Made by a program: the position numbers and the translations under genes. DNA of 64,000 bases from Lacunisphaera sp. (GTDB taxonomy: Bacteria; Verrucomicrobiota; Verrucomicrobiia; Opitutales; Opitutaceae), in assembly GCA_036499685.1 (NCBI GenBank), contig DASYDH010000059.1:23057-87056 (forward strand), read 5' to 3'. Positions 23,689 to 64,000 of this stretch are shown piece after piece. The notes below the pieces were generated by a model. The model was given only the letters and a program-made list of their open reading frames with translations. It was not told the DNA's origin and ran no database searches. Each line of letters begins with the position of its first letter. The first letter of the stretch is position 1.

Positions 23689-24909
23689 TTGAATCCCAAC
23701 CGTCCGTACATCGCCCTGCTGTTCACGACTTTTCCGAAGACCTCGGAGACTTTTTTGCAACGCGATGTGGCGGCATTACAGGCGAAGGGGCTGCGGCTAA
23801 AACTTTTTTCGCTGTGGGGCGGTGGCGGCGAGTTCAATGGATTATCGGTGCAGAATTTTCCAAAGTGGCGGTTGATCTGGGTTTTTTTGTGGATCATTCC
23901 GTGGAATTGCGTGTGGCGTCCGAGAGTCGTGCGTGATTTGTTTGAGGGCGTGTTGACGCGCGGCGCGCCGTCGTGGCTGAACTTTTGGGAGAATATGTTG
24001 GGCGCTGGCTTTGCCGGCAGCTATGCGCGACAGTTGAGCAAGGATCCGCCCGCGCTGGTGCACGGCGCCTGGGCGGGTGCGCCGGCTACGGCCGGCTGGT
24101 TGTTCTGGCGAATGTTTGGCTGGCCGTACAGCAGTGGGGCGCACGCCTACGACATCTATGAGCACGGTGGCGATTGGTGGTTGCGCGAAAAGTTACTGCA
24201 CGCCCGGTTCACCCACACGTCGACGGAAATGGGCCGGCGTGAACTGATCGCGCGGGATTTGCCACCGGGGAAAATTAAATGCATTCGACGCGGCTTGGGC
24301 ACGTTTCCGACGTTTAAGCCATTGCGCGCAAACCGGCAGCCGCTTCGCCTCATTTGCATCGCGCGTCTCGTGCCAAAAAAGGGACTCGATCATCAATTGC
24401 GAATTTACGCCGCGCTGAAGCAAGCCGGACTTTCCTTCGAGGCCCGGATCGTGGGCGATGGGCCGTTGCAGAGTGAATTGGAGAATTTGATCGCTAGTCT
24501 CCGGCTCGATCGCGAGGTGAGTTTGCTGGGGAAATTACCGCAGCCGAAAGTGTGGACACAGCTCGCGTGGGCCGACGTATTGCTGCACACCGGTGTGATC
24601 GCGAAGAGCGGCGATCGCGACGGATTGCCCAATGTGATTCCGGAGGCGATGGCGGCTGGTGTATTGGTGGTGACATCACCTGTTTCCGCGACGACGGAGG
24701 CAATCAGCGAGGGACGCACGGGCTTGGTGGCGGACGCTGATCAGCCGCTCGCGTGGGTGGCGGCGCTGCGGAGGTTGAGTGACGACAATCAGTTGGCGGA
24801 GACCTTACGCACTGGCGCGCGAACTTGGGTTGAGGAAAATTACGACGCGCATAAAAATACTGCGCAACTGGTCGCGTGTTTTGAACAGGCCATGAAAAAT
24901 CAACCGTGA
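23689..24909 (+). CDS. GT4 glycosyltransferase (WcaL-like)
   Basis: TTG start (uncertain); FP..SETF..R; ARLVPKKG; DRDGLPNVIPEAMAAG. Confidence 0.88.
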   Translation: MNPNRPYIALLFTTFPKTSETFLQRDVAALQAKGLRLKLFSLWGGGGEFNGLSVQNFPKWRLIWVFLWIIPWNCVWRPRVVRDLFEGVLTRGAPSWLNFWENMLGAGFAGSYARQLSKDPPALVHGAWAGAPATAGWLFWRMFGWPYSSGAHAYDIYEHGGDWWLREKLLHARFTHTSTEMGRRELIARDLPPGKIKCIRRGLGTFPTFKPLRANRQPLRLICIARLVPKKGLDHQLRIYAALKQAGLSFEARIVGDGPLQSELENLIASLRLDREVSLLGKLPQPKVWTQLAWADVLLHTGVIAKSGDRDGLPNVIPEAMAAGVLVVTSPVSATTEAISEGRTGLVADADQPLAWVAALRRLSDDNQLAETLRTGARTWVEENYDAHKNTAQLVACFEQAMKNQP

Positions 24910-24931
24910 CGGAAAACGGCGGAACGTTCGC

Positions 24932-25984
24932 ATGATTTACTATGATATCACCAAAATGGGAGCCGCCCGGCATCGCTCGGGGTTGATGCGCTTGACGTCA
25001 CGCTTGATGGAGGAACTGGGCTCGGCGATCACGACGGTCGCGTGGGATCAGCGACAGCGGGCGTTCGTCGTCGGCCGTCAACGCGACCCGGTAAAATGGG
25101 AGGCGAAGGATTGGTTGTTCACGGTCGAGATGTTCAGTGAAAGCGAACGTCCGGGAATTTCCGCATTTCTGAAAAATCCGCCCTGTCGTCTAGCCGCGAT
25201 GTTTCATGACGCGATCCCATTGAGATTTCCGCACATCACCTGGCCGCAGAGTGTGCAGCGCCATCCGGAATACATGAAGTTGCTCGCCGGATTTGAACGC
25301 ACGTGGGCGATCTCGGAAGAAACGAAAAAAGACTTCGCCGGCTTCTGGCGCTGGCAGGGCGTGGAGGTGCGCGCGCAGGTGGATGGGATTGAACTAGGCG
25401 CGGATTTTGATGGGGGCACCCGGGTGCAACGCGATCCGTTGGTTGCTTCGGGCAGACCGGCGCTCCTGTGCGTTGGCATCGTTGAGCCGCGGAAAAATCA
25501 AACGTTTCTCCTAGATGTTTGTGAAGTGCTCTGGGGGGAGCAGGTTGATTTTGAATTGGCCGTGCTCGGGCGCATCAATCCCCATTTTGGCAAACCAATC
25601 GCGGCGCGGATGAAGGCGTTGGAAAAGCGCGAACCACGTTTTCGTTTTCACGCTGCGGCGGGGGATCAGGAACTGGCGAGATTGTACGCGAATGCGCGCG
25701 CGGTCGCGTTTCCCACCATCGCGGAAGGTTGCGGGTTGCCGCTGCTGGAAGCGTTGTGGCGCGGCGTTCCGTGTGTCGCGAGCGACCTGCCGGTGCTGCG
25801 GGAAAACGCTGACGGAGGTGGCTGTTTGGTAGCTGGCGTCAACAGTGTCGAAGATTGGCGCACAAAATTGCGCAGTGTGCTCACTGACGCAGAGCTCAGC
25901 CGGCGTTTGCAGCGCGAGGCGATGACTCGGACTTTGCCGCGTTGGACCGATGCGGCGCAAACGATTTTGAAGGCGTTGCGTTAA
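24932..25984 (+). CDS. GT4 glycosyltransferase (WbdA/mannosyltransferase-like)
   Basis: FHDAIPL.FP; VGIVEPRKNQ; EGCGLPLLEAL..G.PC. Confidence 0.88.
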   Translation: MIYYDITKMGAARHRSGLMRLTSRLMEELGSAITTVAWDQRQRAFVVGRQRDPVKWEAKDWLFTVEMFSESERPGISAFLKNPPCRLAAMFHDAIPLRFPHITWPQSVQRHPEYMKLLAGFERTWAISEETKKDFAGFWRWQGVEVRAQVDGIELGADFDGGTRVQRDPLVASGRPALLCVGIVEPRKNQTFLLDVCEVLWGEQVDFELAVLGRINPHFGKPIAARMKALEKREPRFRFHAAAGDQELARLYANARAVAFPTIAEGCGLPLLEALWRGVPCVASDLPVLRENADGGGCLVAGVNSVEDWRTKLRSVLTDAELSRRLQREAMTRTLPRWTDAAQTILKALR

Positions 25985-26006
25985 TTGAAACGGCAACACT
26001 GCCCGC

Positions 26007-27203
26007 TCACATCTGTTTGACGGCGTAAGCCATCGCGACAGCGATTTTTTCGAGATCTTCGTCGCTGTGGAGCGCTGAAACGGCAGTCCGGATGAGATCC
26101 TTTCCTGGCGGCACGGCGGGAGCGATGGACATGACGGTGAACACACCTTTGTCCAACAATGCCTGCCAGAAACGATAAACCAGCTCCTTGGAACCGAGGA
26201 CGATTGGTACGGCGGGAGTTTCGCTGTCCCATGTGTCGAGTCCGAGCGTCTTGAGCATTTCGCGGTAGCGCTTCGTATTGCGCCAAAGCCGCTGCAAATG
26301 CTGGGGTTCCGTCTGCATGATATCGAGCGATGCCGAAGCCGCTGCGGCTTGGCTGGGACTGATCGCGGCACTGAAAAGGGTCTGCTTGGAGTTTGTGCGG
26401 AGGTATTCGATCAACTCGCGCGAACCGCTGACAAACCCACCGGTACTCGCGAGCGATTTCGACATCGAACCACAGAGGATGTCGACCTTGTCGTTGAGCT
26501 TAAAGTGATCGACCGTGCCGCGTCCCTGCCGGCCGAGGACCCCCAAACCATGCGCGTCGTCGACGACCGTAAAGCAACCGTTGTCCTCACCAATCTCCGC
26601 CAGTTCCGGCAGCCGGCAAACATGGCCTTCCATCGAATAGACCCCCTCGACCACGAGCATTTTCGGAATGGAATGAGGCACGCTCTTGAGGACTTGGCGA
26701 AGATCCTCGGGGTTATTGTGGCTGAAGCGTTCCGCTGTGGCCATGGATAGACGGATGCCATCCCAAAGGCAGGAGTGAATGTTTTTATCGGCGAGGACGA
26801 TGTCACCCTTCTGGACAAACGAAGCCACCGCAGAGCAGCACGAAACATAACCGGCGACCGAAATATGGCAGGCCTCGCGCCCGAGAAACGCGGCGAGTTT
26901 TTCCTCCAGCGCGACGTGATATGCGCGCGAGCCGTTGGAAATGCGGGCACCGGTCGTGCTTGAGCCCCACGCTTTCGCACCTTCACCGCACGCCTCGATT
27001 ACCTTGGGATGGAACGACAATCCGAGGTAGTCGTTGCTCGAAAGCATGATCATATCCCGACCCTGCAACTTGATATGCGTACCCTGCTGCGCCTCCATCG
27101 CGTGGTAGTAGGGCTTGTATTTCAGCCGCATCTTTGTCGCGTAGTCGTCCTGCGCGCGTTCGATCAGGGCTTTTTTGGTCTTGGTGAAAAGGGAAAGGGC
27201 CAT
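26007..27203 (-). CDS. PLP-dependent alpha-oxoamine synthase, serine palmitoyltransferase-like
   Basis: 398 aa; SNDYLGL, GSSTTGAR, IHSC..DG, EGVYSMEG, DDAH, GSMSKSLASTGGF (PLP lysine), PAVP....IR. Family is secure; substrate is not. Confidence 0.85.
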   Translation of the reverse strand: MALSLFTKTKKALIERAQDDYATKMRLKYKPYYHAMEAQQGTHIKLQGRDMIMLSSNDYLGLSFHPKVIEACGEGAKAWGSSTTGARISNGSRAYHVALEEKLAAFLGREACHISVAGYVSCCSAVASFVQKGDIVLADKNIHSCLWDGIRLSMATAERFSHNNPEDLRQVLKSVPHSIPKMLVVEGVYSMEGHVCRLPELAEIGEDNGCFTVVDDAHGLGVLGRQGRGTVDHFKLNDKVDILCGSMSKSLASTGGFVSGSRELIEYLRTNSKQTLFSAAISPSQAAAASASLDIMQTEPQHLQRLWRNTKRYREMLKTLGLDTWDSETPAVPIVLGSKELVYRFWQALLDKGVFTVMSIAPAVPPGKDLIRTAVSALHSDEDLEKIAVAMAYAVKQM

Positions 27204-27272
27204 GGAAACTGGCGCGAACTACACGTCAGACCCGGGTGGTTAGCAATCGCAAAGGCCGGCGTCCCGTGGGAC

Positions 27273-28457
27273 TCAGGTCTTTGGCGTCAGCGTGTGCATC
27301 CACGAGACAATGGCATTCGCGTAGCCGTTCCACGATTGCAACTTGCGGTTGCGGGCGGCGACCGAGAGAGCCGCCAGCTCGCCGGGATTTTTCAATAGTG
27401 ATCGCATGGCGGCCGCCAAATCATCCGGGTTGACGGACACCAGCGCAATGCAACCTCCGCCGACGGCGGCTTCGGCCAACGCGCCGCGCCCCGAGCAAAT
27501 ACAGGGACGTCCGTGTTGGAGACTTTCGAGGACGGGAAGTCCGAATCCTTCGATCAGAGACGGATAAACTGTAAAGGAACATTCGCGGTAAGCCGCGTGA
27601 AGGCGTTCGTCGGTTACGCTGCCTTCGAAAAGGAGCGGCCGGCCGGCGCGCTGCAAAATGGCAATCAGATCGAGCGCGGGTTTCGCGGTGTCAGGCCGGG
27701 CGAGACCGAGAAGTTGCAATTCAAATTGTACGCCGGAATCCCAGAGGGACACGGCTGCTTGCAACAATGCCAGGTGATTTTTTCGTCCCTCGATCGTTCC
27801 GACGCTCAGGATGCGCGGAAGTGAATCGGGCCGGGTGCGAGGAGCATCTGGTGCGAGCGTCAGGCTGAGCGGATCCACGGCGAGTGGAATTGCTTCGACG
27901 GGCGGAACATTTTTCACTCCCAGCCACCGCCAGTACTCGCGAAGGCTCGCGGCGGAGTCGGCGGAAATTGCGGCGACTCCGTCGAATTGCAGCAGTTCGC
28001 GCAGGTAGGAGGGCATGCGCGCCACGGTGCCGGCCGGCGTTAGTTCAGGAAATTTCAGTGGAATGGCATCGTAGAAGATCGCGATTTTGGCACCGCGAAC
28101 GGCCGGAAAAATTTCACGGAGTCGGCTTCCCACTTTGGCGGAAAATAATTCGGGACAAATGAAACCGGAATTGTCTGGAAGGAACGGTTTGGCACCGCGC
28201 CAGCGGGTGGTCGCGCCGGAGATTTTTTGCGAGAGCGTCCACTTGGCGCCGCGTGATCTGCCCGAGCCGCCGCTGCGATCACGCAGCACGGCGAGTTCGC
28301 CAGTGCCTAGTGTCCGCCAGCCGATCAAATGGGGATCGTAGCAAACGGGAGCGGCGTTGCCCTGCGCATAAAGTTCCTCGAACAAACTCCGGCACACGCG
28401 CTGAATGCCCGTTTGGGCGGCGGTATGGCTGGTGTGCGTGGCGTCGAAGAGCAACAT
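27273..28457 (-). CDS. GT4 glycosyltransferase (WbdA-like)
   Basis: From ATG 28457; TGIQRV, YDAIPLKFP, VGTIEGRKNH, EGFGLPVLESL..G.PCI. Confidence 0.88.
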   Translation of the reverse strand: MLLFDATHTSHTAAQTGIQRVCRSLFEELYAQGNAAPVCYDPHLIGWRTLGTGELAVLRDRSGGSGRSRGAKWTLSQKISGATTRWRGAKPFLPDNSGFICPELFSAKVGSRLREIFPAVRGAKIAIFYDAIPLKFPELTPAGTVARMPSYLRELLQFDGVAAISADSAASLREYWRWLGVKNVPPVEAIPLAVDPLSLTLAPDAPRTRPDSLPRILSVGTIEGRKNHLALLQAAVSLWDSGVQFELQLLGLARPDTAKPALDLIAILQRAGRPLLFEGSVTDERLHAAYRECSFTVYPSLIEGFGLPVLESLQHGRPCICSGRGALAEAAVGGGCIALVSVNPDDLAAAMRSLLKNPGELAALSVAARNRKLQSWNGYANAIVSWMHTLTPKT

Positions 28458-28459
28458 GG

Positions 28460-29047
28460 TCAGGGTTGTCGGTGCCAAAAGTTGACATGGCCAATGGTCG
28501 CGAGCTTCCTCCAATGCCCGCCGATTCGTTCGAGCGCGTTGGGCTGTTCGAACTCAAAGAGGGCGGCATAAACCGGGCGATGGTCCGGCGCTAGCGATTG
28601 AAGCAGTGGCCGGTAGTTCATCGGCAGGATTTGCTCCCAGCGAAACAGCAGAATATCCGTAGAATAAAGGAATGCGCTGCTCACGTGCATTCAAAAATAG
28701 CGGAATCGGGCGACAAGTTTGTCTGGGCCCGACGCGCCGCATCCCGGTAGGTACGTTCGCATGGTTCCAAATTCAGAACGGGGCGAGCCCGGAAGAATCC
28801 TCGGCTGGAGGCAAAGTCTGCCGTGACTCAAAAACCGGGCACTATTAAGATGTCCGGACGGTTCCGATCTACCTGCATCTGGCGACAAATGTCGCCAGAG
28901 AAACAGAGCACAACCGGCGAAACCGCCCACCAAAAGCCCCATCAAAAAAGCGCGCAACCAAGCCGGACGAAATAGCGGCAGTGATGGCTGGGAATTGTTG
29001 GGTATCGGCGCGATAAAAGTAATAGTGCCAGTATTTCTAAAAATGCC
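28460..29047 (-). pseudogene. Probable decayed membrane (GT-C-like) gene remnant
   Basis: Protein-like segments in two frames broken by TGA stops and a frameshift (..ERTYRDAARRAQTNLSPDSAIF / MHVSSAFLYSTDILLFRWEQI..RPVYAALFEFE..); 3' end sits 2 bp before the next gene; 5' limit uncertain. Confidence 0.45.
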
Positions 29048-29183: not shown

Positions 29184-31403
29184 TCACGGTACAACTCCTG
29201 GGATTCCCACTATGCGCAGCTCCTTGATGGCGAACGGCAGCGATTCCTCATCTCCCTTTTCCCGGGAAATCGAAAGCGTGATCTGATTACGTTTTCCGGC
29301 AATCAATGGCACCTTGATTCCCCAGGGCGGCGCACCGGAAACGCTTAAAGCGAAGTCATCAGCTCCTTTCACCCGACGCGAAATCGTCCATGTTCCCTTC
29401 GGCCAGTTCGCTGGCTTAAAGGGATGCAATTCCATAACCAATTGACTGGGTGAATGCGGCAGTATCTCCAGATCAATTGAAGGCGAGGCCATATCCGGCG
29501 GTCCGTTCAGAGGAAAGACCCCGTTCATCGTGAAGACACGATTGCTCTCGCGAAGCAGGACATACTCGAGCCCCGTGAGACGCCGACGCGAGTTTGCGTC
29601 AAAGGTGTCGGCCCAGGCCCGGCTGACGAGCACCGCAGCGGGAGTGGGAATTTTCCGATTAGCCTCATTGATCACGTTGTCCCGCAGGTAGCCTCCACCT
29701 TGCTCCCCCCGGGCGGCAAAATAGATCCTGCTGTCGGAGAGGAAATAGGCCGCCCACATGCCGTGATAAAATGCCATGCGAAATGTCGCGGCTTCGATCA
29801 GAATCGGCCGTGCATGCAGCGTGGTTTGGGACTCTTCGCGCAATGTGAACCAATCATGGGAGAGCAGCTTTCGTTCGCTCCACTTATACATCTCCCGGCA
29901 TTGCATGCCCACGGCAAGGGTTAGAAAAGCAATCAGGCCCGCCATACCGGGCAGCACGAGCCTCCGGAAATTTTTCAATTCGGACTGATACCAATAATAC
30001 GCATCGACGATTACCCCGCCCAAAACAGCCGAAACAAAGATGCCGGTGAATTGCACACTCTTTTGCCAGCCATAAACGAAGTGCTCCAGCAAAGTATAGA
30101 TCAACAGGGCCAATCCGCCCGAAAAAACGAATAGACCGCCCCAGCGATCGCGTGCCCGGCGCCAAGCCAGACCGAGGCCAATCAGGATAAGCAAAGACAG
30201 GATTCCTCCCACCCATATCCCCAACCATTTGGCTGCAGTCGGAGCCAACGTGCCCAACGCCGGAAGGTATTGAACCGGATGCAACAGATCCATGATATTG
30301 CCCCAACGATCATCCGCTCGCGCCGACAAATAGGCGGCAACAAACCCCCAACCCGCCCGGAAAGTTGTGGCCGGGTTCAGGAGCAAACTGACACCGACGG
30401 CAACCGCCACGACCAACTTGGTACGCAGTTGCATTCCCGTTGAGGAAGTAACGAACGTCCGAATCCAAAGCAATCCGCAGGGCAAAAACACAAAGGGGAT
30501 CATTTCGGGATAGGAGCAGTACAAGCCGTGAAGGCTCAAAGCCAGCAACGATGACCACACCAGCAATTCGTTTCGCCGTTCCCACCCGGCGCGCAAGGCC
30601 GACTCCGTAGCGATGATGGCAGTCGATCCCACTATCACTCCGAGTAAGTTGGGTAGATTGGAATTACTGTAGAAAAACATAAAAATCGGGTGGAAAACCA
30701 TGAGCGATCCTTGGGCCAACCACGATAGTCGCTCGGTATAGAACGTCCGGATTGCCAGATGCGCCACCGCCAGCCATGGCAAAAAAAGACAGGCCGTGAG
30801 ATAAACATAGAGCTTGAGCGGAGACAGATTCACCACGGCTGAACAAAGCGCGATCAATCCCTCCGAGCCCATGCGTCCCCACGCGGGACGCCAGCCCACG
30901 ACGGCATCCGCCGCGCTCATCAGCGGCTGCAACGGATTCCACAGTGGGTGCTCCATGTAGGTGTACCGCTTGAGATGCTCCGCAACCACGATCCAGAAGA
31001 AACTGTCATGATTGCTGGTGCCGTCGTACATCACGGTGGTAAACGAGCTCAACACCGGCCAAAGCAGCAGAACGAAAAAGAGCAGCACGAGCGAGCCATA
31101 GAGCCACGTGGATTTCCGGCAAAACCAAGTCCGACAATCGCGCCAAAACATCCTGCGGCTCCGAGTCCAAAACAGGGAGACAAAAACCGGCGTCAAACAT
31201 CCCCAAGCCGCGAGACCGGAGAGCGGCAGAAAGAAATTTACCAGCGAAACCGCCAGCAGGAGCGAAGCGATTCCCGTCAAGATCGCGATCGACATCCGGG
31301 TAGGTTCATCACTGCGGTTGAAAGCCGCCGCCAGCCAATACCCGGCCAAAACCAGCACGACGGGAATACCGAGCAGCAGCAAAATTCCTTCAAATGGATT
31401 CAT
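29184..31403 (-). CDS. Polytopic membrane protein, putative GT-C glycosyltransferase with C-terminal beta-rich domain
   Basis: 739 aa from ATG 31403; more than 10 hydrophobic segments; loop motif YDGTSNHDSFFW; soluble C-terminus. Confidence 0.65.
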   Translation of the reverse strand: MNPFEGILLLLGIPVVLVLAGYWLAAAFNRSDEPTRMSIAILTGIASLLLAVSLVNFFLPLSGLAAWGCLTPVFVSLFWTRSRRMFWRDCRTWFCRKSTWLYGSLVLLFFVLLLWPVLSSFTTVMYDGTSNHDSFFWIVVAEHLKRYTYMEHPLWNPLQPLMSAADAVVGWRPAWGRMGSEGLIALCSAVVNLSPLKLYVYLTACLFLPWLAVAHLAIRTFYTERLSWLAQGSLMVFHPIFMFFYSNSNLPNLLGVIVGSTAIIATESALRAGWERRNELLVWSSLLALSLHGLYCSYPEMIPFVFLPCGLLWIRTFVTSSTGMQLRTKLVVAVAVGVSLLLNPATTFRAGWGFVAAYLSARADDRWGNIMDLLHPVQYLPALGTLAPTAAKWLGIWVGGILSLLILIGLGLAWRRARDRWGGLFVFSGGLALLIYTLLEHFVYGWQKSVQFTGIFVSAVLGGVIVDAYYWYQSELKNFRRLVLPGMAGLIAFLTLAVGMQCREMYKWSERKLLSHDWFTLREESQTTLHARPILIEAATFRMAFYHGMWAAYFLSDSRIYFAARGEQGGGYLRDNVINEANRKIPTPAAVLVSRAWADTFDANSRRRLTGLEYVLLRESNRVFTMNGVFPLNGPPDMASPSIDLEILPHSPSQLVMELHPFKPANWPKGTWTISRRVKGADDFALSVSGAPPWGIKVPLIAGKRNQITLSISREKGDEESLPFAIKELRIVGIPGVVP

Positions 31404-35202: not shown

Positions 35203-35324
35203 TGTGGGGTGGCTTCAAAAAAGATGGCGGATGAGTCACGGCTTGCCCATTCATTTCGGTGTTTGCGACGGGGATCGAGGTATTTTCATGGCGTTGGCCG
35301 GTCGATGCGGCAATGTGGCGGCCC

Positions 35325-36059: not shown

Positions 36060-36081
36060 CAGTCGGGGTTGCACCCCACCC

Positions 36082-37945: not shown

Positions 37946-37947
37946 GC

Positions 37948-40296: not shown

Positions 40297-40298
40297 GG

Positions 40299-41366: not shown

Positions 41367-41374
41367 GGGTAAAA

Positions 41375-42247: not shown

Positions 42248-42296
42248 GGTGAAAGCGATTAATGTGCTTCTTCCGCAACAGACAACAAGCTGTTTT

Positions 42297-48244: not shown

Positions 48245-48290
48245 GTGTGGGGTAAATGGTCCGATCTTCGGCCCGAAATGGAAGGGGAAA

Positions 48291-49867: not shown

Positions 49868-50123
49868 GGCGCGGGTCGTGAGGGAGGCGATTCATCGTTA
49901 TCGATACTGACACTTAAATACTACAAAACCGCTACTCTCATGATATTTTTTTGGATTCATCAGCAGGAGGTTTACCTTGACGGCCAGCCCAGTGGGGCGT
50001 TTCGCATAAATCGAACTCATCGACTGGGAAATAACTATCCTTGAGGTATTTCCGCAGGCTCGTTTTGGGCCCAAAGCCGGATCGATCAATGGTGGCGAAC
50101 GAAAATGGAAGGAAACGGATTTC

Positions 50124-56297: not shown

Positions 56298-58535
56298 TCA
56301 GGTCTGCGACGAAGCGAGACGATTATTTATTTTGCCGCGACGAAAATCAGTCAGCGCAAAGAGCAACGTAAGTCCCGCGAGGGTGACGGCGATCACACCG
56401 AGGCTGTCATGTCCGATGGTCGTCCGTTCAAGAGCCCAACTGCGGCTCATCCAGGCGCCTTCGTCGGCGTTGTTCGTGGCATGCGGCGGGGCCACGGCGA
56501 TCCAGCCTTCCGCATCGTCGCGGCCGTCTTCAATGACGAGGCGGGCTTTTTGTCCGCTGTAGGCGTGAACGTCCGCCCCCCAGAAATCGATGTCCGCAGG
56601 ATTGGGACCCGGACAATTCAATTGAGCGAGTACGCGACCGGCTTGATCTTCGATTTGCAAATGAAGGCCGTTCCCTGGACTGACGGGAAATCCGGCATAG
56701 GGAATGACCAGCCACGGTGCATTGAGAGGGAAAGCCGAACTCTGGACGCGGCCTTTGAAGGCCGGACCGTCGATGTGGGTGCCGTAAAAAGTGTTTCGGA
56801 AATTTTCCGGCCATAGTGCCGCTGCGCCGGTTAACCGATCTGCTGGATAAGTGGACGGAGTAGTGATCGAAAAGCTCAGATCGCCCACAGTTCCGGGCGG
56901 AGTCAGGAGTTTCCCCCATCGTTGTTCGCCGTGAAATTCGAGCGGCATTGGCCATAGAAAAATGCCTAGGACGCAAACCGAACCCAGGATGCCCAGCGTG
57001 CGCACCCTCCAAGGGTCCGATGCTATGATCGGTGAATTGGTGACGGAACTTGTGGCCGCGACCATTGTGAATCCCGCACCCAACAGAAAGAAAACGCCAG
57101 CGACTACGAAGAGGGTCGGCCACAGTTGGCGGATATAATTCGTGGCTGCGCTGATGAAATCGCCGCGTTCCCGCGGACCATCCGGTCGCAGGCTGACCGG
57201 CAGGAGATCGCGTAGTCCGGGTTGGTCCAGCACTCCCGTGACGATGGCGGGATCGGGATAGAGCACGGCACGAACCTCCTTGCTCGAAATCCGGGACGCG
57301 TCGTGGTTCACGAGATATTGTTTAATCGCATCCCGACGAAGCGCACCCCATGCGGCCGCGTGCTCATGAAAATATTCGGTGTGGGCGCGGGTGCTGATCC
57401 ATTTCAAACCGAAGGTGAAGGCCACGAGCCAACCGGCGCAAAGCAATGCGATGACCGGTCGCCACGAACGCACCCCATGCAGAAGGCGCCACAACGCAAA
57501 CGCGTTGGCGAGCACACCGAGCGAGAGCAAGTCGCCGTAGCGGGACACAAATCCGATATAGCCGCCCGACCGTCCGTAGGCGAAGGCCGCAGCCTGCGCG
57601 ATGGCGAAAAGCCCCAATCCGAGTGCGGTGCGATCGACATTTGCCGCCCCCCGATTTCCGCGCAATTGCAGCGCTAGAAGCAGCGTCGGCAAATACATGA
57701 GGATTGCCACGCCCGGCCATTGCGACGGCCACCCGAGTTGGAGGAGAAACGACGCGAGGAATTGTTGCAGTGACCCGGCGGCCTGGACGTAGGCCCCGCT
57801 ATGCGGCTGATGAGCGCGGGCGACGAGGAGCAGGATGAACCCCATCGCGCCGAGCAACGCCGGCGCCAGCCAGCGAGCCCGCCGGTCCTGCGCCGACGTC
57901 CAGAATACGGTGATAACGACGGCGACGGGCGCCGCCCACATGCTGCCAAAAGTAAACAGCGCCCCCAGCCCCGCCGCTTGTGCGAGCCACCATTTGGATG
58001 AATTAACCGATTGCTCAAACGAGCCGCGGACATGCCAGATGACGAGAACAAGGGCGATGGGGACGAGGGATTGAAATCCCCACGTGCTGTTTTCCCATCC
58101 GTGCGGCAAAGCCGCCAGCGCGACGGTGAGCGCAGTCAGTAGTAACGCCGGCACCACCGGTGCGACGCGACGCAGCCAGCCGGTCCAGACTCCCGCTGCG
58201 AGACCGAAGAGCGCAGCGTTAATGGTGCATTGCAGTTTCGGATCCCACCGTCCGAGCACCGCCGCTTCGAGCCAGGCCAGCAAACGCGTCCAGACCGGGA
58301 TGTGTTCATGGTGGGACTGGAAGAAATCCGTCCACGAGAGTTTGCCTTGCAGCCAGGGGACAATGATCTGGTGCGCTTCGACCCACCACTGATCGAGATA
58401 AGGCGTGTCGCCGGCATAGAGTTGGATCTCGCGACAGCGGGCCGCGAATACGGCGAGCGCCACACCTCCAGTCCAAAGCCATCCGGCGGGCGGGCTTTGC
58501 CAAGACTGAAGGGGTCGGCTGGATCGATCGCTCAC
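56298..58535 (-). CDS. Putative GT-C glycosyltransferase with C-terminal soluble domain
   Basis: 745 aa, GTG start; GDTPYLDQW loop after TM1, HHEH...TR, ENS.WGFQ, SRY. Confidence 0.68.
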   Translation of the reverse strand: MSDRSSRPLQSWQSPPAGWLWTGGVALAVFAARCREIQLYAGDTPYLDQWWVEAHQIIVPWLQGKLSWTDFFQSHHEHIPVWTRLLAWLEAAVLGRWDPKLQCTINAALFGLAAGVWTGWLRRVAPVVPALLLTALTVALAALPHGWENSTWGFQSLVPIALVLVIWHVRGSFEQSVNSSKWWLAQAAGLGALFTFGSMWAAPVAVVITVFWTSAQDRRARWLAPALLGAMGFILLLVARAHQPHSGAYVQAAGSLQQFLASFLLQLGWPSQWPGVAILMYLPTLLLALQLRGNRGAANVDRTALGLGLFAIAQAAAFAYGRSGGYIGFVSRYGDLLSLGVLANAFALWRLLHGVRSWRPVIALLCAGWLVAFTFGLKWISTRAHTEYFHEHAAAWGALRRDAIKQYLVNHDASRISSKEVRAVLYPDPAIVTGVLDQPGLRDLLPVSLRPDGPRERGDFISAATNYIRQLWPTLFVVAGVFFLLGAGFTMVAATSSVTNSPIIASDPWRVRTLGILGSVCVLGIFLWPMPLEFHGEQRWGKLLTPPGTVGDLSFSITTPSTYPADRLTGAAALWPENFRNTFYGTHIDGPAFKGRVQSSAFPLNAPWLVIPYAGFPVSPGNGLHLQIEDQAGRVLAQLNCPGPNPADIDFWGADVHAYSGQKARLVIEDGRDDAEGWIAVAPPHATNNADEGAWMSRSWALERTTIGHDSLGVIAVTLAGLTLLFALTDFRRGKINNRLASSQT

Positions 58536-60899
58536 TTATTCGATCTTGATGTTCGACCACGCGGTCCAATCCCAGCTCTTATTGTTGTTGGGCCCGTTTT
58601 GGATTTCCAAAAACAGCCGTCCACCCACCAATCCCTTGAGACTTCCGCTGAAATCCTGCAACCCGCGGTCGGATTTGTTTTTCATGGGATCGAGATAACG
58701 TTGGAAAAGTTCGACCCGATCGGTGCCGTTGGACCAGTAGACAATGAATAATGCTCCATCGGTGTTTCCGCCGTTGGTGTAAGTGCCGGGCATCATGCCG
58801 AATTTGCCGCTGACCAATTTCGGATTTTTTGGCAGATCGAAGATCATCTGGCTGGGCGCATGCAAGACGGCGGCTTCCCGTCCGTCGATGATGGTTTCCG
58901 ACACCGGCGTCAGCGATGTATAGCTCACCGGGAAAGATTGGAACATGTGCAACAGGCGCTCGATTTCGCTGGCGAAGAATTTTTTGCCCGAAGTGGGGAA
59001 GGGGATCGACGAAAGTTCGATCGACGCGGTCGGGGCGAAAAATTTCAGTTGGTCCTCGGGGATGTTGATCGTGATCGACCGGACCTTTTTCACCGGCTCG
59101 CTGTTGGCGAAATGCATGTAATCCACGACATCTTCGATCAACGGGTTGAGCACGAACCCGGTGCGCCCCTGGGGTAACGGCATCAGGAAGTCGCGCTTCA
59201 AATCCTGCTCGGTCTCGATGTGCAGGACGACCTGCGGCGGCTTGTAGAAGAAGCTCCGGAGTTTCCCGAGGAATGACGGCTGAAGATCGACTTTCAACCA
59301 GAGAGCCTGATTGGAAAGAGCGGCAATCTTGAGTGGTTCGTTGACTGGAAGGGTTTCGGATCGCAGGAGCGTGGGTTCATACTTGACCGGATCGAATGGT
59401 CCGGGTGTCAGGTGCCAGAGCCCAAAGCCTTTTTCCGTGCGAATGTATTGGTAGCGATACGCGAGCAAGAGCAGTACGCGGGCATCATCCATGGTCGGCA
59501 GGCGGCCATCGATGGTCTCAATTTTCGAGAGCACGTACTGTGGGGCGCGATCTGACGCATAAAGGTCATAGTTCAACCGCTCAAGGGGCGGGTTGAAGGT
59601 GGAGTAGCTCTGGATCACCGGCCTCGGTTGGTAGTTGAGCCGGTTGAGCACGGCTGCGCCGATTTCGAAGCCGACCACGTCGATGGTGGATTTGCCGGCG
59701 ATATCGCGCGTCATGTACAAATCGGCATCGGCGCGGGCGACGTTGAGATGATCGCGATAATTTTGGCGGGTTTGTTTCCACTCCACCACCTGCTCGATGT
59801 TGCTCCAGACTTTTCCCTGGAATTGGCCAAGCGCATTTCGCAGAACGCCCCATAGCGAATTTTCCAACGCCCACAGCGAAAGCAAAATGGCGCCGAGGAA
59901 AATCCAATAGTGTTGGCGGCGACCGCAGGGCGGATCATCGAGCAGTGCGGGATAGGCCGTGAGCGGCAGGAGCGCACAGTAGAAAAAGCCGATCATGTGT
60001 CCGTCCGCCCGTACGAAGCCGTGTTTCCAATTCAGGTAGATAAACGCCCCGAGCAACAGGGTATTGGCAATCGCCCGGGGTTTGTCGGTATGCAGCCGGA
60101 CGTGAACCGCGGAGTAGCCGATCAGTAGGAAGAGGATGACGAGACCCTTCCAAAGTGAAGGGAGTGGCGCGGGGAAACCCATGGACCAAAGCCAGCCGTC
60201 GCTGATAAACCATGACCCGTAAAAATACGCGGGCAGATTCGCCACGTTTTGCCCGAGCGCGATCCAGCCGGCAAGATAAGCGAGACCGTAGGCGAGGGCA
60301 AGGATGCCTGCTTGCCGCCAGCGCCGGCTATAGGCGCTGTAGGCGCATGCGAGCAGCACGACGAACGAGGCGAGCAGGAAATTGGTGAATTTCAGCTGGC
60401 TCGAAACGGAGAGCACAATGGCGATCAGCAGCGTACTGTTTCTCCACGGCATCCCACTCCGGCGCAAAAGTTCAAAGCCAAGGATGGCAATGATCAGCAT
60501 GTGCAGCGCGTCTTCGTACGAAATCGCGAGAAGGAGAAAGAACAGCAGGAAAATCAGGCGCGAGCGGCCGCGCAGACGTTTTGCCTGAAGCACCACCACT
60601 GCGGCCGTGACCACCGCCACCGTCAATTGGCCAAAGATCAGCGCCCACCATTGGACGCCGGAATAGGTCTTGCCCATGACGAATCCCAACGGGCCGTAGT
60701 TGAACACGACGTCGCGGCCAAACTGCATCCCGTGTTCATAAAAATAACCCAGCGCCATCCGCCACGATGGGTCGAGATCGGCCGCGGGCATCAGCGGGAA
60801 ATTGAAGGTCGCGATGACCGTGACGATAAACAGGATGATCCAGCCGGTGATTCTTGAAACGCCGGGCGGCAGCAGGGACTCGGGAACGTCGGGAGACAT
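58536..60899 (-). CDS. Putative GT-C glycosyltransferase with C-terminal NPCBM-like domain (paralog A)
   Basis: From ATG 60899; DLDPSW.MAL, FNYGPLG, KHGFVRAD.H, PRPVIQSYS, ID.RL.T.DD, HAPS..W.W..W. Confidence 0.72.
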   Translation of the reverse strand: MSPDVPESLLPPGVSRITGWIILFIVTVIATFNFPLMPAADLDPSWRMALGYFYEHGMQFGRDVVFNYGPLGFVMGKTYSGVQWWALIFGQLTVAVVTAAVVVLQAKRLRGRSRLIFLLFFLLLAISYEDALHMLIIAILGFELLRRSGMPWRNSTLLIAIVLSVSSQLKFTNFLLASFVVLLACAYSAYSRRWRQAGILALAYGLAYLAGWIALGQNVANLPAYFYGSWFISDGWLWSMGFPAPLPSLWKGLVILFLLIGYSAVHVRLHTDKPRAIANTLLLGAFIYLNWKHGFVRADGHMIGFFYCALLPLTAYPALLDDPPCGRRQHYWIFLGAILLSLWALENSLWGVLRNALGQFQGKVWSNIEQVVEWKQTRQNYRDHLNVARADADLYMTRDIAGKSTIDVVGFEIGAAVLNRLNYQPRPVIQSYSTFNPPLERLNYDLYASDRAPQYVLSKIETIDGRLPTMDDARVLLLLAYRYQYIRTEKGFGLWHLTPGPFDPVKYEPTLLRSETLPVNEPLKIAALSNQALWLKVDLQPSFLGKLRSFFYKPPQVVLHIETEQDLKRDFLMPLPQGRTGFVLNPLIEDVVDYMHFANSEPVKKVRSITINIPEDQLKFFAPTASIELSSIPFPTSGKKFFASEIERLLHMFQSFPVSYTSLTPVSETIIDGREAAVLHAPSQMIFDLPKNPKLVSGKFGMMPGTYTNGGNTDGALFIVYWSNGTDRVELFQRYLDPMKNKSDRGLQDFSGSLKGLVGGRLFLEIQNGPNNNKSWDWTAWSNIKIE

Positions 60900-60933: not shown

Positions 60934-63303
60934 TCAGCGCGCGATGTAAATGTCGGTCCAACCGGTCCAGTCCCAGCCGATGTCATTGTACGGGCCGGGA
61001 TTGACTTCGAGATAGACCGAGCCACCGGCGAGGCCGGCGAGATCGATGCTAAACGATTGCAGGCCGTGATCCTCTTTGACGGAGACCGGGTTGAGGAATC
61101 GTTGGAAAAGATCCTTCCGCTGGTTGCCGTTCGACCAATAAATGATAAAGCGGGCGCCGTTCGTCTTGCCGTCGCCGGTGTAGGCGGCTGGCATGTACCC
61201 GAACATGCCGCTGATCGATTTGGCTCCCTTGGGCAGATTAAAGGTCATCAAGCTCGGTGCGTGCATGATGGCCACCTGACGGTTGTCGATCATGGTGGCC
61301 GAAAATGGCATCCGCGCCTCGTAGGCCGTGGGCGGGGTGCGGAACATGCTGAACATTTTGTCGATGTCCTTGGGAAAATATTTTTCCCCCGTGGTGGGCA
61401 TGGGTGGCAGTGCTGACAGTTTCACGTTAACTTCAGATTGAAAGTATTTCGTGTCACCATCGAGCACCTTGACCGTGATCGCGCTCGCCCAGCGGGTGGC
61501 TTTCCCGCTCGCATAGCGCATATAATCCACCGTATCGCTGATCAACGGGTTCAGGATGAAGCCATTCTGGCCTTGCAGGATCGGCATCAGGTAATCGTGC
61601 GACGAGTTGTCGGTGTCCGTGATGGTCAGCATCACGCGGGGCGCTTGATAGAGGAACCCGCGAATCTTGCCGAGCAGCGAGGTATGCACGTCGACCTGAG
61701 CCCAGAGCGGTTTGCCGGCGAGATCGGCAACTTTCAATGGCTGATTCAGCGCGATGGTTTCATCCCGGATGAATTTCGGTTCGTATTTCTCCGCGTCGAA
61801 GGGCCCGGCGATTTTATGCCACAGGAGAAAACTTTTTTCCGTTTGCAGGAATTCGTAGCGATAGGGCAGCAGTTGCAATATCTGCGCGTCGTCGAGCGTC
61901 AGCAGCCGGTTGTCGATCGTCTCGATTCGCGCGAGGATATAGTCCGGGGCCTGCGGTGACGCCAGATAATGGGCGTTGAGGTGGGCGAGCATCGGGGTGA
62001 ACGCCGAATAACCCTGAATGACCGGCCGCGGGTGGTAGTTGAATTTGTTGAAAATCGCGACGCTTTGCTCGCAACCGAGCACATCGAGGGTGGAATCACC
62101 GACGATCTTGCGCGATTCGCCGAGATCGGCCCCCGCACGAGCCACGGAAAGTTGTTCGCGATAAACCTGCCGGGTTTCCTGCCAGCGGATGACCTTCACG
62201 ACATTGTCCCAGATTTTCCCCTCCATCCAACCCATCGACAGGCGCACCGTGCCATCGAGCGCGCTTTCAAGGGCGATTACAGCCAGCGCGGTGGTCACTG
62301 CGAACACCCGGAAATGCGCGAGGCGGAAACGGTCCGGATCATCGAGGAGCGTCGGATAACTCACCAACGGCAGGAGCGCGCAAAAGAAAAAGCCGATCAT
62401 GTGGCCGTCGGCGCGCACGAAGCCATGTTTCCAGTTGAGGTAGATGAAAGCCCCGAGCAGGAGGGAATTCGCCCACGCGCGGGGTTTGTCGGGGTTGAGA
62501 AAAAGATGAACGACGGCGTATGCCGCCACGACCAGTAGCACGACAATTCCCTTCCACAGCGCCGCCCACGGTGCGGGAATCGCCATGGACCAGAGCCAGC
62601 CTTCGCTGATCTGCTGCGAGCCGGCAAAAAAGTCCGGGAGATTCGCGAGATTCTGCCCGAGCAGCAGCCAGCCGCCCAGATAGGCCGCGACGTAGATCAA
62701 CGCGAGTGCGGCGGCCTCTTTTTTCCGGCCGCGCAGCCAGCTGTAGCCGAAAGCCAGAAACACGGCAAACGCACCGAACAGAAGATCCGTGAACTTGATT
62801 TGCGCATATCCGGCGATGATGAGCAGGATCACAGCGGTGCGGTTTCTCCACGGTTCCGTGCCGCCCCGAATCAGCTCGAACCCGAGCAAGGCCAGCACGA
62901 GCATGTGCATGGCGTCCTCGTAAAGACTGGCGAACAGGAAAAAGAACAGAAAGAAAACGAGCCGGCTGAGAATGCCCTTGAGCAACAATCCCTGTCGCAG
63001 AATCACCACGCCGGAAATTACGGCCAGGATCAACTGCCCGACGAGCAGCGGCCAGAAATGGACGCCGGAGAAAGTCTTGCCCATCACAAAGCCGAGCGGC
63101 CCGTAATTGAAAATAACGTCGCGACCGAACTGCATCCCGTGTTCGAAAAAGTAGCTTAACGCCATCCGCCAGGAAGGGTCCAGCCCTTCGGTTGGCGGTT
63201 GCGGAAAATTGAAGATCTCCGCGACCAGCAGGAGATAGACGACACCCCAGCCGACAGTCCGGGTGACAAACTGCGGGAGCATGAGGGGGCGGGTATAGGC
63301 CAT
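60934..63303 (-). CDS. Putative GT-C glycosyltransferase with C-terminal NPCBM-like domain (paralog B)
   Basis: 789 aa; collinear with 58536-60899 along its whole length; start 63303 or 63282. Confidence 0.72.
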   Translation of the reverse strand: MAYTRPLMLPQFVTRTVGWGVVYLLLVAEIFNFPQPPTEGLDPSWRMALSYFFEHGMQFGRDVIFNYGPLGFVMGKTFSGVHFWPLLVGQLILAVISGVVILRQGLLLKGILSRLVFFLFFFLFASLYEDAMHMLVLALLGFELIRGGTEPWRNRTAVILLIIAGYAQIKFTDLLFGAFAVFLAFGYSWLRGRKKEAAALALIYVAAYLGGWLLLGQNLANLPDFFAGSQQISEGWLWSMAIPAPWAALWKGIVVLLVVAAYAVVHLFLNPDKPRAWANSLLLGAFIYLNWKHGFVRADGHMIGFFFCALLPLVSYPTLLDDPDRFRLAHFRVFAVTTALAVIALESALDGTVRLSMGWMEGKIWDNVVKVIRWQETRQVYREQLSVARAGADLGESRKIVGDSTLDVLGCEQSVAIFNKFNYHPRPVIQGYSAFTPMLAHLNAHYLASPQAPDYILARIETIDNRLLTLDDAQILQLLPYRYEFLQTEKSFLLWHKIAGPFDAEKYEPKFIRDETIALNQPLKVADLAGKPLWAQVDVHTSLLGKIRGFLYQAPRVMLTITDTDNSSHDYLMPILQGQNGFILNPLISDTVDYMRYASGKATRWASAITVKVLDGDTKYFQSEVNVKLSALPPMPTTGEKYFPKDIDKMFSMFRTPPTAYEARMPFSATMIDNRQVAIMHAPSLMTFNLPKGAKSISGMFGYMPAAYTGDGKTNGARFIIYWSNGNQRKDLFQRFLNPVSVKEDHGLQSFSIDLAGLAGGSVYLEVNPGPYNDIGWDWTGWTDIYIAR

Positions 63304-63519
63304 GAACGGTCCTTTTTGGGGAAGAAATGGAATCCCGTCTAGCTGGAACTGCGAGGGGTGGGCGTCGCACCGAAAGGGCGGTTTTCTTCAATAGCGGGCC
63401 GGACGGACGGGGGAATGGCTTTCATGAGTCAGGACCTACGACAAAATCAAGCTTCCAATCCGCTATTCCGGAGCGAAAAATTACTCCGAATTCGACGTCG
63501 CATCGCTCAAACCTGTAAT

Positions 63520-63542
63520 TGCGCCTGAGATCCTCAGGCGCA
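63520..63542. repeat. Perfect 10-bp palindromic stem (REP-like)
   Basis: TGCGCCTGAG-ATC-CTCAGGCGCA. Confidence 0.6.
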
Positions 63543-63582
63543 CAACACTCCAGCGAAGGCGATCAGCCGCAGCGGACTCCAA

Positions 63583-63604
63583 AGATTCATCCATTGATGA
63601 ATCT
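63583..63604 (-). terminator. Stem-loop just after the stop of the partial gene
   Basis: AGATTCATC-CATT-GATGAATCT, 3 nt after the TAA; short U-tract. Confidence 0.4.
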
Positions 63605-63607
63605 CCA

Positions 63608-64000
63608 TTAGCGGTCCTTGCTCTCCAAGCGGGTTAATCGCAATTCCCGCCAATAACTCCATGCGAAGTTGACTCGACCGCTCGGTGCGGCCTCGGTGCG
63701 CAAAATCAGTTTCCCGCCGGGTTCATCGGGTAGACTCACCTCAAAAGGCACCGCACCGCGATCATCCGCGTGCTCGCGGGGATTGAGATACCGTCTAAAT
63801 AGCTCCTTTCTTACGCCTCCGATCGTCTCGGTTTCGACCACAAATACGACGCCATCGGTATCGCCCTTGCCGGTGTAGGCACCGCGAACCAGGCCGATTT
63901 TCCCGCCCAACTGTTTGGCGCCTGCTTCCAAGGGAAAAACAATTTCCGACGGCGCGTGCGCGAAAAGCACCTTCGCTCCATCTTCCTCTAAATTATCAAA
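63608..64000 (-). CDS. C-terminal NPCBM-like domain of a gene starting beyond the window (5' partial)
   Basis: Frame stays open to the window edge (FDNLEEDGAKVLFAHAPS...TDG..F...LFRRYLNP....DRG...W.YW). Confidence 0.8.
   Translation of the reverse strand, partial: FDNLEEDGAKVLFAHAPSEIVFPLEAGAKQLGGKIGLVRGAYTGKGDTDGVVFVVETETIGGVRKELFRRYLNPREHADDRGAVPFEVSLPDEPGGKLILRTEAAPSGRVNFAWSYWRELRLTRLESKDR

Follow-up and report, generated by a model that had tools for sequence, protein, structure and literature searches.

The window analyzed here, 64,000 nucleotides of a Lacunisphaera genome (bases 23057-87056 of the 100,689-bp contig C59; genome of 5.37 Mb in 72 contigs), carries an envelope-sugar locus in which eight large membrane glycosyltransferases (GTs) of seven families (A, B, C, D, E, F/G, and H) are encoded together with three putative lipid-phosphate sugar synthases and eight Leloir-GT genes. 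Our preferred reading, held with moderate confidence, is that the locus directs the building or branching of an envelope glycan in the periplasm from lipid-phosphate sugars, on a backbone made by its own Leloir GTs. Coordinates are those of the window throughout, and values above 64,000 denote the same contig past the window's end. A preliminary description of the window had delimited a 40-kb island at 23689-64000, but the window edge is not the limit of the locus, which spans ~51 kb, from 23689 to ~74,940.

The membrane enzymes are as follows (aa, amino acids; TM, transmembrane).

A, 29184..31403, minus strand: 739 aa, ~12 TM helices and a soluble C-terminal domain, GT-C-like
B, 33055..35202, minus strand: 715 aa, polytopic, probably GT-C
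C, 51337..53394, plus strand: 685-aa GT-C with a C-terminal CBM51-like module
D, 53431..55107, minus strand: 558-aa GT-C; periplasmic insert alpha helical, two TM helices at the C terminus
E, 56298..58535, minus strand: 745 aa, polytopic, probably GT-C, member of a large unannotated family
F, 58536..60899, minus strand: GT-C membrane domain, beta-rich periplasmic domain, and C-terminal CBM51-like module
G, 60934..63303, minus strand: same architecture as F (GT-C membrane domain, beta-rich domain, and CBM51-like module)
H, 63608..66856, minus strand: 1082 aa, PMT_2-type GT-C with three CBM51-like repeats; its C-terminal end (63608..64000) is in the window

Open reading frames (ORFs) for all seven of the polytopic genes called earlier, A to G, were found at these positions, and hydropathy analysis, which bears out their polytopic nature, predicted 5 to 13 TM helices in each of the proteins A to H. 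An eighth gene had been described as partial. The gene is real but complete: the full 1082-aa H, with its PMT_2 match, lies on the contig and extends past the window's end. A "probable remnant" mentioned in the same description was not located.

Fold and profile evidence for GT-C enzymes

Fold evidence from AlphaFold2 (AF2) models searched with Foldseek covers G and D; A, B, C, E, and H were judged by profile. The G model, computed with 29 homologues as input (pLDDT, 90.6), is a bundle of ~12 to 14 helices. Its matches in the PDB were AftD (6w98; 9.6e-6), EmbB (6x0o), EmbA/B, ArnT (5f15), AftA (8if8), and STT3, all of them GT-C enzymes and all at a probability of ~1.0. The D model (pLDDT, 82.7) is an ~11-helix bundle that matched ArnT (5ezm; 2.9e-4; probability, 1.0) and then EmbB/A, Pmt1/Pmt2, ALG3, and STT3, while every non-GT-C match had a probability of <0.25. 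Judged by these models, which match GT-C enzymes and not other folds, G and D are GT-C enzymes. F is a paralogue of G, with 52% identity over the full length (BLASTP), and can be called GT-C because of this identity to a fold-matched protein.

For the profile comparisons, hhalign queries were family alignments built from database matches and syntenic loci. The internal GT-C reference was an alignment of the genome's own PMT_2 paralogues (the genome has 17 PMT_2 matches), and reversed reference alignments served as the control. Against the PMT_2 profile, H scored 99.7% (P, 2e-26), C scored 95.3% (P, 2.2e-8), A scored 94.9% (P, 4.3e-8; 225 columns), B scored 91% (P, 1e-6; also 84% against H over 499 columns), and F/G scored 89% (P, 2e-6). 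E reached 83 to 89% against PMT_2 and H (P, 2.5e-6 to 8.5e-6; also 70% against B over 331 columns), and D reached 58 to 68% (P, 4.8e-5 to 9.5e-5). Most comparisons with reversed profiles stayed below 10% (those of A at or below 2.4%), but three reached 37 to 68%, with P values down to 5e-5; the null was as high as 37 to 67% for B and 67% for E. Since reversed TM profiles can give up to ~67% by chance, we lowered B and E from established to probable GT-C enzymes; the profile assignment of A, C, and H we regard as solid. The method also under-calls true GT-C proteins, since D and F/G, which are GT-C by fold or paralogy, score low. The GT-C nature proposed earlier for all of the polytopic proteins therefore stands by fold for G and D (and for F through G) and by strong profile for A, C, and H, whereas for B and E it is only probable.

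Existing family models capture little of this array. H passes the Pfam model PMT_2 (PF13231; 1.6e-9; 38.6 bits versus a cutoff of 26.1), whereas A to G fail it and have no Pfam match even at an E value of ≤10. Weak NCBIfam matches were seen for C (AftB-type arabinofuranosyltransferase, 3.7e-6, and the Leptospira putative-GT family LA_3751, 6e-6) and for A (LIC_10190, 8e-6). Searches of PDB sequences with the F/G, B, E, and D family profiles gave matches that were absent or at chance level (for F/G, none at E ≤ 10), and B itself has neither a Pfam nor a PDB sequence match. The E family comprises 1768 cluster representatives (50% identity) at E ≤ 1e-3, and no Pfam domain was found in the ten representatives run, which included proteins of 1,200 to 1,780 aa. 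No Pfam or NCBIfam model covers families B, D, E, or F/G, and we found no paper on them or on GT-C arrays in Verrucomicrobia, so that the earlier term "uncharacterised" is fair. Membership in GT87, GT136, ArnT, or GtrC is not supported at the sequence level.

Two names carried by homologues in databases were considered and rejected. NCBI assigns two F/G homologues to GT87/DUF2029 (PimE type), but the Pfam model PF09594 matches 0 of 29 F/G members at E ≤ 1. Some B homologues are called "phosphoglycerol transferase" by JGI; this does not apply either, as there is no sulfatase or AlkP domain.

Conserved acidic residues and carbohydrate-binding modules

An acidic motif in the loop after an N-terminal TM helix had been pointed out in each protein, and these residues proved to be conserved in all seven families, being either invariant or present in at least 97% of homologues. 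D42 in the LDxSW motif of F/G is invariant in 29 sequences, as are D45 in YSxDALE of B in 24 homologues, D41 in AAHD[DE] of D in 22 sequences, and D48, W50 (DQW), and H78 of E in 40 sequences down to 22% identity. In C, W35-E36-D37 is conserved in ≥97% of 39 sequences. The N131-H132-D133 motif of A, found in 7/7 homologues and accompanied by a conserved D127, follows the fourth predicted helix, and H has D34-E35 as its first-loop motif. In the G model, D42 opens a short helix within the long loop between TM1 (residues 11-30) and TM2 (residues 83-107), and this loop is the most conserved segment of the F/G family.

Most of the proteins had been said to end in soluble beta-rich domains. This holds for G, which is beta rich from residue 405 to the end in the AF2 model; D is an exception, with an alpha-helical insert as its soluble part and TM helices at its C terminus. 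A C-terminal module of ~120 aa is common to C, F, G, and H, with three copies in H. The module of C matches that of F/G at 99.8% and that of H at 100% (hhalign). The last domain of G aligned with the CBM51 structure 2vmi with a TM-score of 0.66 and a probability of 1.0 (Foldseek); matches of F/G to the CBM51 model of Pfam (PF08305) were below the cutoff (best, 8e-4) and were found in 13 of 29 members. The modules of C, F, G, and H are thus probably CBM51-like by modeled fold, and carbohydrate binding is predicted for them.

These modules bear on the idea that H, and perhaps other enzymes of the array, glycosylates Ser/Thr residues of secreted or outer-membrane proteins in the manner of actinobacterial PMT, with the TonB-dependent receptor of the locus (see below) as a possible target. 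H is above the PMT_2 cutoff and has a DE motif, the D model aligns with yeast Pmt1/Pmt2, and the receptor is conserved in the locus. However, ArnT-like transferases of lipids and glycans fall under PMT_2 as well, the ligand of CBM51-type modules is carbohydrate and not peptide, and a polysaccharide is a better fit to eight transferases, 6-deoxyhexose genes, and the many Leloir GTs. Protein O-glycosylation therefore seems to us very improbable as the function of this locus.

Synthases of lipid-phosphate sugars

Three GT2 genes lie among the membrane enzymes.

36043..37020, plus strand: ArnC/GtrB-type GT2, polyprenyl-phosphate glycosyltransferase with two TM helices at the C terminus (244-262 and 278-296)
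42297..43076, minus strand: DPM1-type GT2, probable polyprenyl-phosphate hexose synthase, no TM helix
55104..56279, minus strand: GT2 with ~four C-terminal TM helices, polyprenyl-phosphate sugar synthase with the architecture of archaeal dolichol-phosphate mannose synthases

Their assignment to the ArnC/GtrB/DPM1 type, made earlier from the letters of the sequence, is borne out, as the best structural-database match of each is the Pyrococcus furiosus dolichol-phosphate mannose synthase (5mlz), ArnC, or GtrB. The first matches the NCBIfam ArnC model over its full length (1.9e-41) and the PDB entries for ArnC (9hwj; 3.4e-37) and GtrB (5ekp; 5e-26). The second matches 5mlz (2.4e-23), ArnC (1.8e-12), and the NCBIfam dolichyl-phosphate hexose transferase model (1.5e-14). 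The third, whose TM region is 227-382, matches an AglJ-like NCBIfam model (2.5e-34), 5mlz (1.9e-10), and ArnC (2.6e-9). None of the three reaches an NCBIfam equivalog cutoff. The co-location of these synthases with the array gives contextual support to the view that the GT-C enzymes use polyprenyl-phosphate donors.

Use of such donors on the periplasmic face would call for a flippase. No ORF of 70 to 220 aa with two or more TM helices was found in the island, and we accordingly rejected the idea of a small GtrA- or ArnEF-type flippase hidden in the gaps between genes. There is no GtrA (PF04138) on the contig, and the genome's only match is on contig C26. The only candidate flippase in the locus, and a speculative one, is the four-TM tail of the GT2 at 55104-56279.

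Leloir glycosyltransferases, sugar genes, and absent export functions

The remaining genes of the locus are listed below (SDR, short-chain dehydrogenase/reductase; ECF, extracytoplasmic function).

23689-24909, plus strand: GT4, Pfam Glycos_transf_1, 3.3e-25
24932-25984, plus strand: GT4, Pfam Glycos_transf_1, 1.1e-18
26007..27203, minus strand: class I/II aminotransferase-fold enzyme, Pfam Aminotran_1_2, 1.4e-46
27273..28514, minus strand: GT4c, Pfam Glycos_transf_1, 3.7e-18
31424..33025, minus strand: GT4d, 533 aa with an N-terminal extension, Pfam Glycos_transf_1, 1.4e-15
35259..36059, plus strand: MT1, S-adenosylmethionine-dependent methyltransferase, Pfam Methyltransf_11, 3e-20
36962-37951 and 37948-39336, minus strand: two soluble GT2s, Pfam Glycos_transf_2, 4.8e-27, and Glyco_tranf_2_4, 2.6e-14
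39418..42421, minus strand: dTDP-6-deoxyhexose genes, rmlA-, rmlB-, and rmlD-like, NTP_transferase, 1.3e-73, GDP_Man_Dehyd, 3.8e-92, and RmlD_sub_bind, 5e-24
43097-43768, minus strand: MT2, methyltransferase (Pfam)
43786-44859, minus strand: Epi1, SDR epimerase-like, motif YGSTK (Pfam)
44930-48244, minus strand: TonB-dependent transducer with an STN domain (Pfam)
48291-49499, minus strand: FecR anti-sigma factor (Pfam)
49301-49867, minus strand: ECF sigma factor (Pfam)
50124..51188, minus strand: Epi2, CDP-tyvelose-2-epimerase-like SDR, PDB 1orr, 3.8e-34
66930-71039, past the window: GT2+GT4 giant, 1369 aa, Pfam Glycos_transf_1 and Glyco_tranf_2_3
70871-72703, past the window: I610, a 610-aa protein
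72700-74940, past the window: GT4e, 746 aa

The preliminary description had called the island "decoration-only." This label is not supported, because the locus contains eight Leloir-GT genes (GT4a to GT4e, two GT2s, and one 1369-aa GT2+GT4 fusion) as well as rmlA-, rmlB-, and rmlD-like genes, two SDR epimerase-like genes, and two methyltransferase genes. Given these Leloir GTs and sugar genes, it is very probable that the locus also directs glycan assembly on the cytoplasmic side. In our view the giant Leloir GTs are those that would make the acceptor backbone, because they co-vary and co-duplicate with the GT-C genes (see below).

What the description had said of absent genes was correct and applies to the whole 100-kb contig: an initiating transferase, Wzx/Wzy, Wzm/Wzt, WaaL, and GtrA are all lacking, and past the window's end, too, there is neither a wzx/wzy nor an ABC-export set. 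Of the three conditions named earlier as refuting the idea (other folds, acidic loop residues that vary among homologues, and a conventional O-antigen cluster next to the window), none was borne out, the folds checked being those of G and D. In whole-genome family searches, Bac_transf, WecA-type (Glycos_transf_4), GtrA, Wzx (Polysacc_synt), ABC2_membrane, and Wzy_C/WaaL matches fell on other contigs only. This pattern would suit an array confined to decoration, which tailors an acceptor (O-antigen or capsule) produced by the Wzy- or ABC-type clusters on contig C7, C13, C22, or C33, with the local Leloir GTs serving a separate product. Complete Wzy, phosphoglycosyltransferase (PGT), Wzx, and ABC sets do exist elsewhere in the genome, the contig lacks an initiating transferase, flippase, polymerase, and exporter, and decoration is the mode of the Gtr and Citrobacter GT136 three-component systems (PMC11127046). 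On the other hand, the eight Leloir-GT genes lie among the GT-C genes and share their strand. Across genera, moreover, GT-C genes keep synteny with the GT2+GT4 giant, I610, and GT4e, and on contig C44 these are duplicated along with CBM51-GT-C genes, which argues for a single pathway. We consider pure decoration unlikely.

Both SDRs of the locus are CDP-tyvelose-epimerase-like. In Epi2, Phe replaces the catalytic Tyr (HSLFGASK), and the FxxxK form is found in 22/22 orthologues. Retention of this Tyr-to-Phe change, together with a median identity of 89%, argues for a selected, noncanonical function. The ECF sigma, FecR, and TonB transducer genes (44930-49867) form a cell-surface signaling cassette, which interrupts the locus midway on the same strand. 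An alternative ORF at 49898-50488 was rejected as the sigma factor, which is encoded at 49301-49867.

I610 itself had no match in the PDB. Its N-terminal ~390 aa recur in the N termini of the GT2+GT4 giant and the 746-aa GT4 (window 69939-74865) and also on contigs C44, C50, and C35. This I610-type N-terminal domain is unannotated and cytoplasmic, is attached to large glycosyltransferases, and has no Pfam or PDB match.

Conservation across Opitutaceae and further arrays in the genome

The closest matches of several locus proteins are in Lacunisphaera, Oleiharenicola, Didemnitutus, and "Opitutaceae bacterium" assemblies. Loci of the F/G proteins number 395 in species-representative genomes, nearly all of them Opitutaceae/Opitutales, and such proteins are present in 39 of 120 sampled genomes of the family Opitutaceae (27 of 63 genera). 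A synteny survey, proposed with the preliminary description, was made by mapping the island proteins onto 79 Opitutaceae F/G loci, and it revealed a recurrent gene order, GT4e - I610 - GT2GT4 - (H/C-type GT-C)n - F/G - (D) - E - GT2 - D - (C) - Epi2, with FecR and the TonB receptor often alongside. The number of GT-C genes per locus varied from 1 to 7. Median identity to the window proteins was 89% for Epi2 (no other core gene is conserved as well), 74% for the GT2 synthase at 55104-56279, 68% for the GT2+GT4 giant, and 33 to 47% for the GT-C genes. By these comparisons, the right half of the locus is a syntenic core across Opitutaceae genera in which the donor genes are conserved and the GT-C genes diverge fast. 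Conserved donor genes paired with fast-diverging, copy-variable transferases fit a diversification of linkages or side chains. The earlier picture of a single island is thus right in that this is one locus, but the locus is not uniform: the right half is the core common to Opitutaceae genera, whereas gene A, in the left arm, is patchy, being present in 6 of the 120 genomes of the family and missing from both genomes of the same genus.

Orthologues of the receptor and FecR, with 46 to 63% identity, adjoin GT-C genes in 13 to 18 of the 79 loci, in other genera, whereas their best paralogues in this genome are only 34 to 39% identical. Since the syntenic orthologues are closer than the paralogues from the same genome, the ECF/FecR/TonB cassette is orthologously linked to the cluster.

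Within the phylum, the E family is concentrated in Opitutaceae (11/15 family genomes versus 4/185 elsewhere). E adjoins a polyprenyl-phosphate GT2 in at least 30 loci, and here the GT2 at 55104-56279 lies between E and D. In some organisms D and E are fused in proteins of ~1,270 to 1,300 aa (D part, 44% identical, 2e-125); in this genome they are separate and flank the GT2. The fusion suggests that D and E work as a complex.

The surroundings of E matter for another proposal, namely, that E, and perhaps B, is a polymerase or ligase acting on polyprenyl-diphosphate glycans (Wzy, WaaL, or BP-Pol type) and supplies the "missing" polymerase. The profile matches of E and B are only moderately above the null, and an iterated hidden Markov model (HMM) search leaves E unlinked to the other GT-C families. 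Moreover, a Wzy-type cluster on contig C13 (65.5-77 kb) holds three paralogues of the E-family TM domain beside a PGT (Bac_transf), along with a weak Alg9/PMT_2-like GT-C, soluble GT2s, and a Wzy_C gene. The presence of this Wzy_C gene means, however, that the C13 cluster has a polymerase gene of its own, and neither E nor B has a Wzy_C, O-antigen-ligase, or other Pfam match at E ≤ 10. The fusion of E to D, a GT-C enzyme verified by its modeled fold, the adjacency of E to polyprenyl-phosphate GT2s, and the invariant Asp after TM1 of E also speak for a GT-C enzyme. We regard a polymerase or ligase role as rather improbable.

Besides the C13 cluster, two more arrays were found in this genome. 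On contig C15 (~139-161 kb), seven PMT_2-type genes lie within 20 kb; at one end of this array are a paralogue of C (159061-160614; 35% identical) and a polyprenyl-phosphate-type GT2 (160675-161355). Contig C44 (~170-191 kb) has a paralogous cluster of GT2GT4, I610, and CBM51-GT-C genes, consisting of a GT2+GT4 giant with 38% identity over 1335 aa, three I610-like genes, and at least four CBM51-bearing or PMT_2-type membrane proteins. Because GT-C arrays recur in this genome (C15, C44, and C13) and in its relatives, they are a lineage trait and not a one-off.

Proposed mechanism

We hypothesize that most of the chemistry specified by the locus takes place on the periplasmic face of the inner membrane. 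The three GT2 enzymes would load sugars from nucleotide donors, some of them made by the rml, SDR, and methyltransferase genes of the locus, onto polyprenyl phosphate. The resulting lipid-phosphate sugars would reach the outer leaflet by means of a flippase that is not recognizably encoded in the locus, and the eight GT-C enzymes would then move the sugars to the growing glycan by using the conserved acidic residue after the first TM helix. The CBM51-like lectin modules of C, F, G, and H probably hold these enzymes on the polymer, as in EmbC, AftD, and GT136. The acceptor backbone would most likely come from the GT2+GT4 giant, GT4a to GT4e, and the GT2s, with initiation and export supplied from elsewhere in the genome, and expression may respond to an outside signal by way of the embedded ECF-sigma/FecR/TonB-transducer cassette.

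Several points weigh against this model of periplasmic building and branching. The contig has no flippase (of the GtrA, MATE, or ArnEF type), initiating transferase, or exporter, and for want of these genes the locus by itself does not make up a closed pathway. Among enzymes of the GT-C fold are also some whose donors are polyprenyl-diphosphate oligosaccharides (STT3/PglB), so that a monophosphate donor is presumptive for each enzyme of the array. The conserved Asp is placed at the active site by helix order only. The profile matches of B and E are only ~10-fold better than the worst reversed null (P, 5e-5), and the iterated HMM search of E, run on the ORFs of this genome and the fetched loci, recovered six paralogues and no bridge to the other GT-C families.

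Relation to known glycosylation systems

Glycosylation in the periplasm from lipid-phosphate sugars is usually described as the work of one synthase and one GT-C enzyme that adds a side chain. Among known systems, those most like the present locus are the three-component glycosylation systems (that of GT136 among them) and the mycobacterial Aft/Emb machinery. The Citrobacter youngae system consists of PPPRS, MATE, and GT136 components, and its GT136 (ORF12) has a C-terminal carbohydrate-binding module (CBM) and an auxiliary SDR epimerase (PMC11127046). Like GtrA/GtrB/GtrC, ArnC/ArnEF/ArnT, and the GT136 system, the present locus combines a GT2 polyprenyl-phosphate synthase with a GT-C enzyme of the periplasmic face, and like the ORF12 system it has GT-C enzymes with a C-terminal CBM and an SDR epimerase gene adjoining a synthase gene. 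It differs in having eight GT-C genes of seven families and three synthases instead of one of each, in lacking a recognizable flippase gene, in its many Leloir GTs and its ECF/FecR/TonB cassette, and in that its GT-C families are not GT136, GtrC, or ArnT. From the PMT_2/ArnT-like GT-C enzymes (PF13231; CAZy GT39/GT83), to which H is tied by Pfam and a DE-type motif and A and C by hhalign scores of ~95%, the locus is set apart by the failure of A to G to match the Pfam model at E ≤ 10 and by the three CBM51-like repeats of H, which are absent from ArnT and PMT.

The Gram-positive rhamnose (Rha)-polysaccharide side-chain systems (GacI/J/K/L and the streptococcal/lactococcal Rha cell wall polysaccharides; PMC9574508) likewise combine a cytoplasmic rhamnose-type backbone, GtrB-like synthases, and GT-C side-chain addition outside the membrane, and rml genes are present in our locus. 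Those loci, unlike this one, contain an ABC exporter and an initiating enzyme, have far fewer GT-C genes, and have no CBM51 modules.

In the mycobacterial machinery (AftA to AftD, EmbA/B/C, PimE/Mpt, and Ppm1), as proposed here, several GT-C enzymes with periplasmic CBMs draw on polyprenyl-phosphate monosaccharides to lengthen and branch a polymer. Both also employ GT4 enzymes and a synthase of the DPM1 kind, and G is closest by structure to AftD and EmbB. Unlike the mycobacteria, however, the host here is a Gram-negative verrucomicrobium; the enzymes show no sequence membership in GT53, GT85, GT87, or GT89, the CBM is CBM51-like, there is no DprE1/E2 or UbiA-type phosphoribosyl pyrophosphate transferase, and all genes are in one locus.

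This likeness raises the possibility of a lipoglycan made in the manner of lipomannan/lipoarabinomannan (LM/LAM) or arabinogalactan, in which the GT4s would add sugars directly to a membrane lipid (an amino- or sphingolipid, perhaps, for which the aminotransferase-fold enzyme encoded at 26007-27203 would be needed) and, after flipping, the GT-C enzymes would do the bulk extension and branching of the chain from polyprenyl-phosphate sugars. Neither a polyprenyl-diphosphate primer nor a Wzy or ABC exporter would be needed. The best structural matches of G (AftD and EmbA/B), the NCBI naming of two F/G homologues as GT87/DUF2029 (the PimE/Mpt family), the many GT4s with a DPM1-like GT2 and no PGT or exporter, and the position of the aminotransferase-fold gene among GT4s are all consistent with this idea. 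It is nevertheless wholly inferential. The GT87 model of Pfam, as noted, matches no F/G member, the aminotransferase-fold gene lies in the left arm, outside the conserved core, and no lipid-anchor chemistry is known for Opitutaceae. We judge it quite improbable.

A broader and doubtful proposal, which we offer as speculation, is that in Opitutaceae the synthesis of a major envelope polymer takes place for the most part outside the cytoplasm, where CBM51-tethered, fast-diversifying GT-C enzymes, supplied with lipid-phosphate sugars, would extend and branch the chain. The system would be switched by a dedicated pair of TonB-dependent transducer and ECF sigma factor, possibly with an amino- or sphingolipid anchor in this genome. 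If true, Gram-negative bacteria would have their own equivalent of mycobacterial arabinan/LAM assembly, with at least four enzyme families unknown to current databases.

In soil, freshwater, and guts, Opitutaceae are common degraders of polysaccharides, and to our knowledge their envelope glycans are essentially unknown. Returning to our preferred reading of periplasmic building or branching on a locally made backbone, its principle is known, while its scale and its GT-C families are new for a Gram-negative bacterium. This Gram-negative lineage keeps up to eight GT-C genes per locus, with further arrays on three other contigs. The G and D models, the invariant loop residues, and the D-E fusions offer a basis for new family definitions, and the tie to a TonB-dependent transducer yields a concrete regulatory hypothesis.

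Boundaries of the locus

On the left, the locus is bounded by a LysR regulator gene and, upstream, leuCD. On the right, it ends with the 746-aa GT4 at ~74,940, which is followed by repeats, an integrase fragment, and the contig end. The G+C content of the locus is that of its flanks. We considered whether a conventional O-antigen cluster continues past the window and rejected this idea, as the remaining 11 kb contain only GTs, followed by the integrase fragment. Between the last GT4 and the truncated phage-integrase-family gene at the contig end, a noncoding repeat of ~400 bp with hairpin-like, GC-rich ends is present in two copies (window ~75020-75900).

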